A DNA stretch of 42,771 nt from IMG/VR virus record IMGVR_UViG_2563366830_000018. The stretch is one strand, 5' to 3'. This DNA comes from a virus (taxonomy: Duplodnaviria > Heunggongvirae > Uroviricota > Caudoviricetes). The notes beneath the pieces were generated by a model that ran no database searches, was not told the DNA's origin, and saw only the letters and a program-made list of their open reading frames with translations. This document shows positions 7,597-7,800 of the stretch, piece after piece. Position 1 is the stretch's first letter; every line of letters starts with the position of its first letter. Position numbers and translations under genes: made by a program.

Positions 7597-7628
7597 CAAA
7601 AAACAACAGGCACCCCGGAGGATGCCTG
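7597..7628 (-). terminator. Terminator-like hairpin between I and J
   Basis: On the minus strand, CAGGCA..TGCCTG hairpin followed by TTGTTTTTTG, just upstream of the J RBS. Confidence 0.5.
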
Positions 7629-7666
7629 TATCATGACTGAATAAAAATTCTGAATATCTTCACATT

Positions 7667-7793
7667 TTCACAAACTGACTGTGGCGCGTATAATTTCGCT
7701 GCGTTAGTGTTTTTTGCCCGAGTAACAAAAACAACTCCTTAACTCTAATCTTTGTCTGTCCCCGCAGCTCCGCGATCACTGCGGGATTTTTTT
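7667..7793 (+). ncRNA. Candidate small RNA unit (promoter plus terminator) antisense to the late operon, between I and J
   Basis: TTCACA, 16-bp spacer, perfect TATAAT (about 7667-7694); about 95 nt downstream a CCCGCAG-11 nt-CTGCGGG hairpin then TTTTTTT (about 7761-7793). No ORF with an RBS in between. Confidence 0.4.
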
Positions 7794-7800
7794 ATTCTTT

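Follow-up and report, generated by a model that had tools for sequence, protein, structure and literature searches.

A predicted small RNA gene of the PasB family in the gap between prophage tail genes I and J

The stretch of viral DNA analysed here (the window; 42,771 nt, IMG/VR record IMGVR_UViG_2563366830_000018) carries the tail genes I and J on its minus strand, separated by a gap at 7555-7800. At 246 bp this I-J gap is longer than the 200 bp given in the first-pass annotation. The features of the gap and its flanks, in window coordinates, are:

3862-7554, minus strand: tail tip/host specificity gene J, with a GTG start at 7554, 1230 aa and seven GpJ Pfam domains
7597-7629, minus strand: late-strand hairpin and U tract upstream of the J ribosome-binding site (-20.9 kcal/mol, z = -3.6)
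7630-7666, plus strand: conserved block upstream of the promoter, holding a CRP-site-like inverted repeat, TCTGA-N6-TCACA (7649-7664)
7667-7694, plus strand: sigma-70 promoter (TTCACA 7667-7672, 16-bp spacer, TATAAT 7689-7694)
7701-7793, plus strand: predicted primary transcript of the PasB allele, 93 nt, with the start inferred from the -10 element and the end set by the U tract
7715-7793, plus strand: stretch matching the published 83-nt PasB, 79 nt here, with four substitutions and a 4-nt deletion (~90% identity)
7735-7760, plus strand: putative seed region CUCCUUAACUCUAAUCUUUGUCUGUC, single-stranded according to the predicted fold
7761-7793, plus strand: rho-independent terminator and presumed Hfq-binding module (7-bp stem, 11-nt loop, U7)
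7801-8481, minus strand: tail assembly gene I, with its stop codon at 7801-7803 (Pfam Lambda_tail_I, E = 6e-17)

In the ExPEC strain SF-468, where the 271-bp gap region is 100% identical to the window, PGAP calls I and J with nothing in between, and its gpJ has the same length as that in the window (1230 aa, 3693 bp). For gene I, the mechanical open reading frame (ORF) of 226 aa compares with the 193 aa (582 bp) called by PGAP in identical genomes and in EPEC E2348/69; gene I thus probably begins at 8382, 99 nt further in. The small RNA (sRNA) unit has a G+C content of 39.9%, compared with 58-61% for the flanking genes I and J. With promoter and terminator on the plus strand and both tail genes on the minus strand, the unit is antisense to the late operon, as the first-pass annotation had described it. 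Its statement that phage lambda has no such unit also holds: the lambda I-J gap is only 60 bp and the unit is absent.

Could the late strand of the gap instead code for a small protein? A 39-aa minus-strand ORF is present at 7660-7779 of the window, and CDSs are annotated within the gap in phage 1720a-02 and PhiR12_1. However, across 99 unique homologous sequences there was no conserved ORF on either strand; 36 of these lacked any late-strand ORF of at least 20 aa, and in the others the ORFs differed in both frame and protein sequence. Close alleles also differ by 1-nt and 4-nt indels. We give a late-strand protein almost no credence, and the earlier view that the unit contains no plausible ORF is borne out.

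The minus-strand hairpin (7629-7606, followed by UUGUUUUUU) is kept in all homologues with sequence changes that preserve pairing, and a U-G wobble pair is possible only on the minus-strand (late) RNA. It had been read as a terminator hairpin upstream of J that supports the idea of an insert. The hairpin itself is real, but the 60-bp lambda gap has a counterpart at the same position, a hairpin of unrelated sequence with a U tract (-21 kcal/mol, z = -3.0). The hairpin therefore predates the insert and is not evidence for it; most likely it is an ancestral feature of the I-J junction that lies outside the sRNA cassette. From what is established for lambda late transcription, Q-modified polymerase should pass through it. 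We also considered a second late-strand sRNA with its end at this hairpin (7629-7597), but it lacked support: there was no corresponding RIL-seq entity in EPEC and no good promoter.

The plus-strand promoter fits the consensus at 11 of 12 positions. Allowing up to one mismatch to TTGACA-N16-TATAAT, it is the single site on either strand of the 42.8-kb window, where 0.17 would be expected by chance, and its earlier description as a near-consensus sigma70 promoter is thus upheld. A transcript running from ~7701 to 7793 would be ~93 nt, in agreement with the ~95 nt estimated previously between promoter and terminator, and in the predicted fold its body is largely unpaired. The terminator stem pairs CCCGCAG (7761-7767) with CTGCGGG (7779-7785) and is followed by seven T residues at 7787-7793. 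With a 7-bp stem and a folding energy of -12.6 kcal/mol, this is a canonical intrinsic terminator, as first noted, although calling it strong was somewhat generous.

The position and architecture of the unit correspond to a known RNA. Five prophage sRNAs have been discovered by RIL-seq in EPEC E2348/69 and confirmed by Northern blotting (Pearl Mizrahi et al. 2021, PMC8550237). One of these, PasB, is an 83-nt RNA of prophage PP6 (NC_011601.1, 1466343-1466261, minus strand) located between E2348C_1436 and E2348C_1437, and was probed on Northern blots with AATCCCGCAGTGATCGCGGAGCT (Table S6, PMC8550237). In E2348/69, PasB is flanked by I, which ends at 1466255, and by gpJ, which starts at 1466496; the E2348/69 and window I-J gaps align at 89% identity. 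Window positions 7766-7788 are the exact reverse complement of the PasB Northern probe. Between the window allele and EPEC PasB, 75 of 83 alignment columns are identical, and all eight differences (the four substitutions plus the 4-nt deletion) fall inside the pairing segment, at 7735-7760 in the window. The two share the same I-J gap, orientation, promoter, 5' leader, terminator, U tract and probe site; they differ in that the window allele has one U fewer in the leader, and in host background, which is ExPEC/APEC for the window allele and EPEC for PasB. The window allele thus has the I-J position, antisense orientation, probe-site homology and 3' stem-loop with poly-U of the PasB family. The pairing segment of the E2348/69 allele is not shared, which separates the alleles and is compatible with family membership.

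The published 5' end of PasB, taken from read coverage, corresponds to 7715, 14 nt downstream of the start at 7701 predicted from the -10 element, and falls just past the conserved GCGUUA-U-rich leader. Either the RNA undergoes 5' processing or one of these positions is imprecise.

From these alignments, we identify the window unit as an allele of PasB, an RNA already known from reports of 2014 and 2021 and from a 2026 survey across genomes (Zhu, Shabalina and Storz, bioRxiv 10.64898/2026.05.13.724894). The window allele may be among the variants that Zhu et al. counted without naming. The Rfam search that the first-pass annotation had suggested returned no model for the gap RNA: no family in Rfam 15 matched the gap at either gathering or permissive thresholds.

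The published data on PasB also describe its expression (all PMC8550237). In an hfq deletion mutant, PasB was reduced 110-fold under the activating condition and 5-fold under the non-activating condition. In 99-100% of its chimeras PasB took the second position; its U tract is 7 residues long, and by interaction count it ranked 15th in the RIL-seq network. Normalised read counts were 5-15 for I and J and 480-1080 for pasB. PasB is therefore abundant while the neighbouring tail genes are almost silent, which is the expression pattern that defines a moron. Phage morons (Juhala et al. 2000, cited in PMC4104026) are extra DNA inside a conserved operon, with their own promoter and terminator, a lower G+C content and expression from a repressed prophage, the last being known here from the homologues. 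In the window we find a separate promoter and terminator, a lambda junction without the unit, and a deviant base composition. Unlike those morons, the window unit has a non-coding RNA as its cargo in place of a protein gene, and its transcription opposes that of the operon. By analogy with the homologues, the window allele would be expressed as an Hfq-dependent RNA of ~80-95 nt.

A likely EHEC counterpart can be found in Hfq-CRAC data from O157:H7 Sakai, in which EcOnc22, EcOnc23 and EcOnc24 were listed as mutually homologous plus-strand RNAs (Tree et al. 2014, PMC4104026, Table S2). EcOnc22 was ~85 nt on a Northern blot and was destabilised without Hfq (PMC4104026). The peak coordinates of EcOnc22, EcOnc23 and EcOnc24 lie in the I-J gaps of the Sakai prophages Sp15, Sp14 and Sp11, respectively, and the alignment of the Sp15 gap to the window extends over its whole length. 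As the 2014 coordinates refer to an older genome version, mapping to the current RefSeq requires correction (loci L260-L263); relative to NC_002695.2 the offset is +137 to +146, a value measured at AgvB1 only (1.94 Mb). With this AgvB1-derived offset applied, the three EcOnc peaks shift onto the body of the sRNA homologue. EcOnc22-24 have in common with the window the upstream box, the -10 element, the leader, an AAUCUUC motif and the terminator stem; they differ in that the body belongs to another allele class (~70-80% identity) and the -35 element is poor. On this basis PasB and EcOnc22-24 are likely equivalent. The link between them is absent from both Pas papers, in that the Pearl Mizrahi table gives no EHEC homologue of PasB (PMC8550237) and Zhu et al. 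do not mention EcOnc. A 2021 review gave the targets of EcOnc22-24 as unknown.

The published experiments on the homologues PasB and EcOnc22 back the proposal of the first-pass annotation that this is an sRNA moron with its own promoter and terminator. We consider it very probable that 7630-7797 is a self-contained sRNA gene, an allele of PasB in the EcOnc22/23/24 family, which sits as a moron between the I stop codon and the J hairpin and acts by Hfq-dependent pairing in trans.

A comparison of I-J gaps in related phages, which had also been suggested, showed that the unit recurs. We assembled a sample of ~200 family loci from two pattern scans of IMG/VR, to which we added the window and loci fetched from phages, E2348/69 and Sakai. 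Among the 194 loci with a recognisable terminator there were 62 sRNA alleles, with predicted primary transcripts of 90-103 nt. The terminator stem was identical in 193 of the 194; the remaining one, CCCACAG/CTGTGGG, is changed on both sides with pairing kept. Terminator loops vary freely across the family. The body falls into several classes, with little in common beyond the GCGUUA-U-rich leader, an AAYAAYUCC motif and AAUCUU. One allele in the sample is E2348/69 PasB, another differs from it only at position 27 and matches the 'PasB-2' of Zhu et al., and the window allele occurs 7 times, window included.

Tandem cassettes were present in seven loci (L056, L021, L068, L085, L130, L185 and L237, the first being IMGVR_UViG_2698536657_000013, reverse strand 1-730). 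One phage contig has three tandem units, each with a box, a -10 element, a different body and a terminator, and one tandem unit carries a different terminator stem.

The gap region was matched in 1801 of 5426 complete E. coli genomes (~1/3), with a median of two matching places in each genome and a maximum of ten. At 100% identity, the 271-bp gap query was present in 25 or more complete E. coli genomes, for the most part from human extraintestinal and avian isolates, and 39 records were at least 99% identical to it. Among GTDB species representatives, matches to the box pattern had a credible context in E. albertii only, the others being chance matches in unrelated phyla; this agrees with the range of PasB, which is Escherichia and Shigella (Zhu et al. 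2026).

Conservation across the gap is highest upstream of the promoter, at TTCTGAA-N3-CTTCACA. In eight homologues identified by BLAST, the TCTGA-N6-TCACA half-sites are invariant while the spacer between them varies, and the box is also kept in family loci retrieved through the terminator pattern alone. The sole terminator-pattern locus without the box, L209, was an unrelated chance match and was rejected as a family member. The distance from the box to the -10 element is exactly 24 nt in nearly all of the 200 loci. Across these loci the -10 element is kept (TATAAT in 107, AATAAT in 63, TATCAT in 21) but the -35 element is not (TTCACA in 124, TCCGGC in 36, TTCTGT in 23, and others). In the tandem arrays the box recurs with each unit; it is therefore part of the sRNA promoter, and does not belong to J or the late transcript.

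Of the 10 positions of the CRP core, the box agrees with 9. Allowing up to one mismatch to TGTGA-N6-TCACA, it is the sole match in the window, but 1.6 would be expected by chance. Its centre is ~44.5 bp upstream of the predicted start; the canonical spacing for activation by CRP is -41.5. PasB levels were high in static overnight LB cultures but low in DMEM during exponential growth, the opposite of the CRP-repressed Spf (PMC8550237). Taken with the match to the CRP core, this contrast fits activation by cAMP-CRP, although the published LB/DMEM comparison confounds growth phase, oxygen and glucose, and effects of sigma-S or FNR are mixed in. Neither Pas paper discusses the promoter or CRP (PMC8550237; bioRxiv 10.64898/2026.05.13.724894). 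We put forward a CRP site at the box as a lead only.

One family locus from IMG/VR has an sRNA promoter that is broken a few bases past the -35 region. The inserted DNA starts with TGAACCGCCCCGGG, followed by an ORF, and resembles the end of an insertion element; this copy would be inactivated.

The family comparison bears on whether the unit has an RNA function at all, since it could be a mere pair of transcriptional insulators or a decaying remnant. Such a reading could appeal to the lack of a reported phenotype for any family member, and to the occurrence of at least one locus with a promoter split by an apparent insertion element. Yet the promoter, the box spacing, the U-rich leader and the terminator stem are maintained over 62 alleles, tandem duplication retains all parts of the unit, and in two pathotypes the RNA reaches high levels that depend on Hfq. 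Because the architecture has been maintained and amplified in tandem, we regard a functionless remnant as very unlikely.

To what RNAs might the unit pair? By RIL-seq, PasB was ligated on Hfq to ~37 partner RNAs (PMC8550237). The partners in overnight static LB include E2348C_2648, the napF 5'UTR, map, hflX and the nlpD-rpoS region, and also fabR (at the fabR/yijD junction), caiF, bfpB, tolC, raiA and gshA (PMC8550237). We fetched 12 partner sites, most of which coincide with a start codon or with the boundary to a neighbouring gene (napF, rpoS, yijD, caiF, tolC, raiA, gshA and trmJ). In windowed duplex predictions, the best duplex was within nt 17-50 of mature EPEC PasB (CUCCUUCACAUUGAUCUUCAUUUGUCUG) for 10 of the 12 partners, a placement that agrees with the seed position proposed by Zhu et al. 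from conservation alone. The predicted duplex of EPEC PasB with napF had an energy of -25.7 kcal/mol, with an equivalent duplex (-25.8 kcal/mol) spanning -17 to +6 of the start codon, and that with caiF had an energy of -20.4 kcal/mol. Summed over the 12 partners, the best duplexes of EPEC PasB reached -206.7 kcal/mol; with shuffled targets the mean was -161.7 and the minimum -178.8 kcal/mol, and none of 40 shuffles reached the observed value. Taken individually, only ~4 of the 12 duplexes beat all of their own shuffles.

On the same 12 EPEC partners the window allele scored -160.8 kcal/mol, the level of shuffled targets. As the pairing segment differs, the target set of the window allele probably differs from that of EPEC PasB. 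The putative seed region of the window allele opens with CUCCUU (CUCCUUA including the next base), the complement of a strong Shine-Dalgarno sequence, and this is kept in the window allele.

A different kind of target was suggested by the CA-rich AACAAAAACAAC, which would mimic GcvB targets and make the RNA a sponge of GcvB, as an anti-sRNA resembling AgvB. The CA-rich stretch at 7730-7735 and upstream does superficially resemble GcvB target sites, and AgvB is likewise prophage-encoded. However, the best PasB-GcvB duplex had an energy of only -12.5 kcal/mol, compared with a mean of -15.1 kcal/mol for shuffles, 28 of 30 of which were at least as good. In the parts of the RIL-seq table examined, a GcvB-PasB chimera was absent. 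The Rfam models for AgvB (RF02702) and AsxR (RF02703) had no match in the gap even at E <= 10, although AgvB was found in the Sakai control, and AgvB occupies a moron site downstream of the PR' promoter rather than the I-J gap. Sponging of GcvB therefore strikes us as extremely unlikely. That the unit is an AgvB homologue, as the CA-rich stretch might suggest, was rejected from the locus, the model search, the duplex energy and the parts of the RIL-seq tables examined. The likeness to AgvB/AsxR is more general: both are short, prophage-borne and Hfq-dependent, with a conserved 3' module and a variable pairing segment. AgvB and AsxR differ in their locus downstream of PR', their length of 51-60 nt and their action as sponges, and have no sequence or model match with the unit.

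The orientation of the unit also raises the possibility of action in cis, in which the RNA would pair with the I-J part of the late transcript during lytic growth and lead to cleavage or to altered J expression. Antisense RNAs are familiar in phages, examples being lambda OOP and P22 sar. Complementarity to the late strand is perfect by construction, transcription converges on the late operon, and the cassette always occupies one junction, immediately behind the I stop codon. Set against this, the late genes are nearly silent in lysogens, where PasB is abundant and ligated on Hfq to dozens of unlinked mRNAs, and the RIL-seq tables examined list no chimeras with E2348C_1436 or E2348C_1437. The body also varies freely between phages with similar I and J, as fits a seed acting in trans. 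We consider it unlikely that the RNA acts mainly in cis, although a role in cis would be compatible with one in trans.

Our preferred reading is that the RNA acts in trans, by Hfq-dependent base-pairing at translation-initiation regions, as inferred from the homologues and the duplex predictions. In a lysogen, with the late operon silent, host RNA polymerase would start at the sigma-70 promoter of the cassette at ~7701, and the intrinsic terminator would end transcription at 7793. The resulting ~93-nt RNA, perhaps trimmed to ~79 nt, would be stabilised by Hfq bound to the terminator hairpin and U tail. The single-stranded segment at 7735-7760 would then be free to pair with the translation-initiation regions of mRNAs from the host and from other horizontally acquired genes.

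The 2026 survey searched for near-identical copies and describes PasB as a nearly invariant gene (Zhu et al., bioRxiv 10.64898/2026.05.13.724894). We tentatively suggest, as a possibility with clearly less than even chances, that the I-J sRNA is instead a modular cassette family uniting PasB and EcOnc22-24, with a hypervariable pairing segment and sometimes two or three copies per gap. In such a family, expression would depend on a host factor, possibly cAMP-CRP, via the TCTGA-N6-TCACA box 24 nt before the -10 element, and the ExPEC allele would have private targets. The box with its fixed spacing, the tandem arrays, the allele-specific pairing segment and the likely equivalence of PasB and EcOnc22-24 are computational observations that go modestly beyond the published accounts consulted.

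Matches to other known RNAs occur elsewhere in the window. An STnc100 sRNA (129 bits) adjoins three tRNA genes, Arg-tct, Arg-tcg and Met-cat (25062-25261 and 25337-25586, both minus strand); in Sakai, STnc100 adjoins AgvB in the late region of prophage Sp10, and Zhu et al. related STnc100 to PasD (bioRxiv 10.64898/2026.05.13.724894). A C4 antisense RNA (81 bits) and an IsrK Hfq-binding RNA (62 bits) are 25 nt apart on the minus strand (33503-33590 and 33615-33691), and look like an RNA-based regulatory module of the prophage.

The PasB-family RNA is among the most widespread prophage-borne sRNAs of E. coli, yet it is absent from Rfam and from genome annotation. Treating PasB and EcOnc22-24 as a single family whose pairing segments are specific to each allele would make differences between strains in their Hfq regulons easier to interpret.
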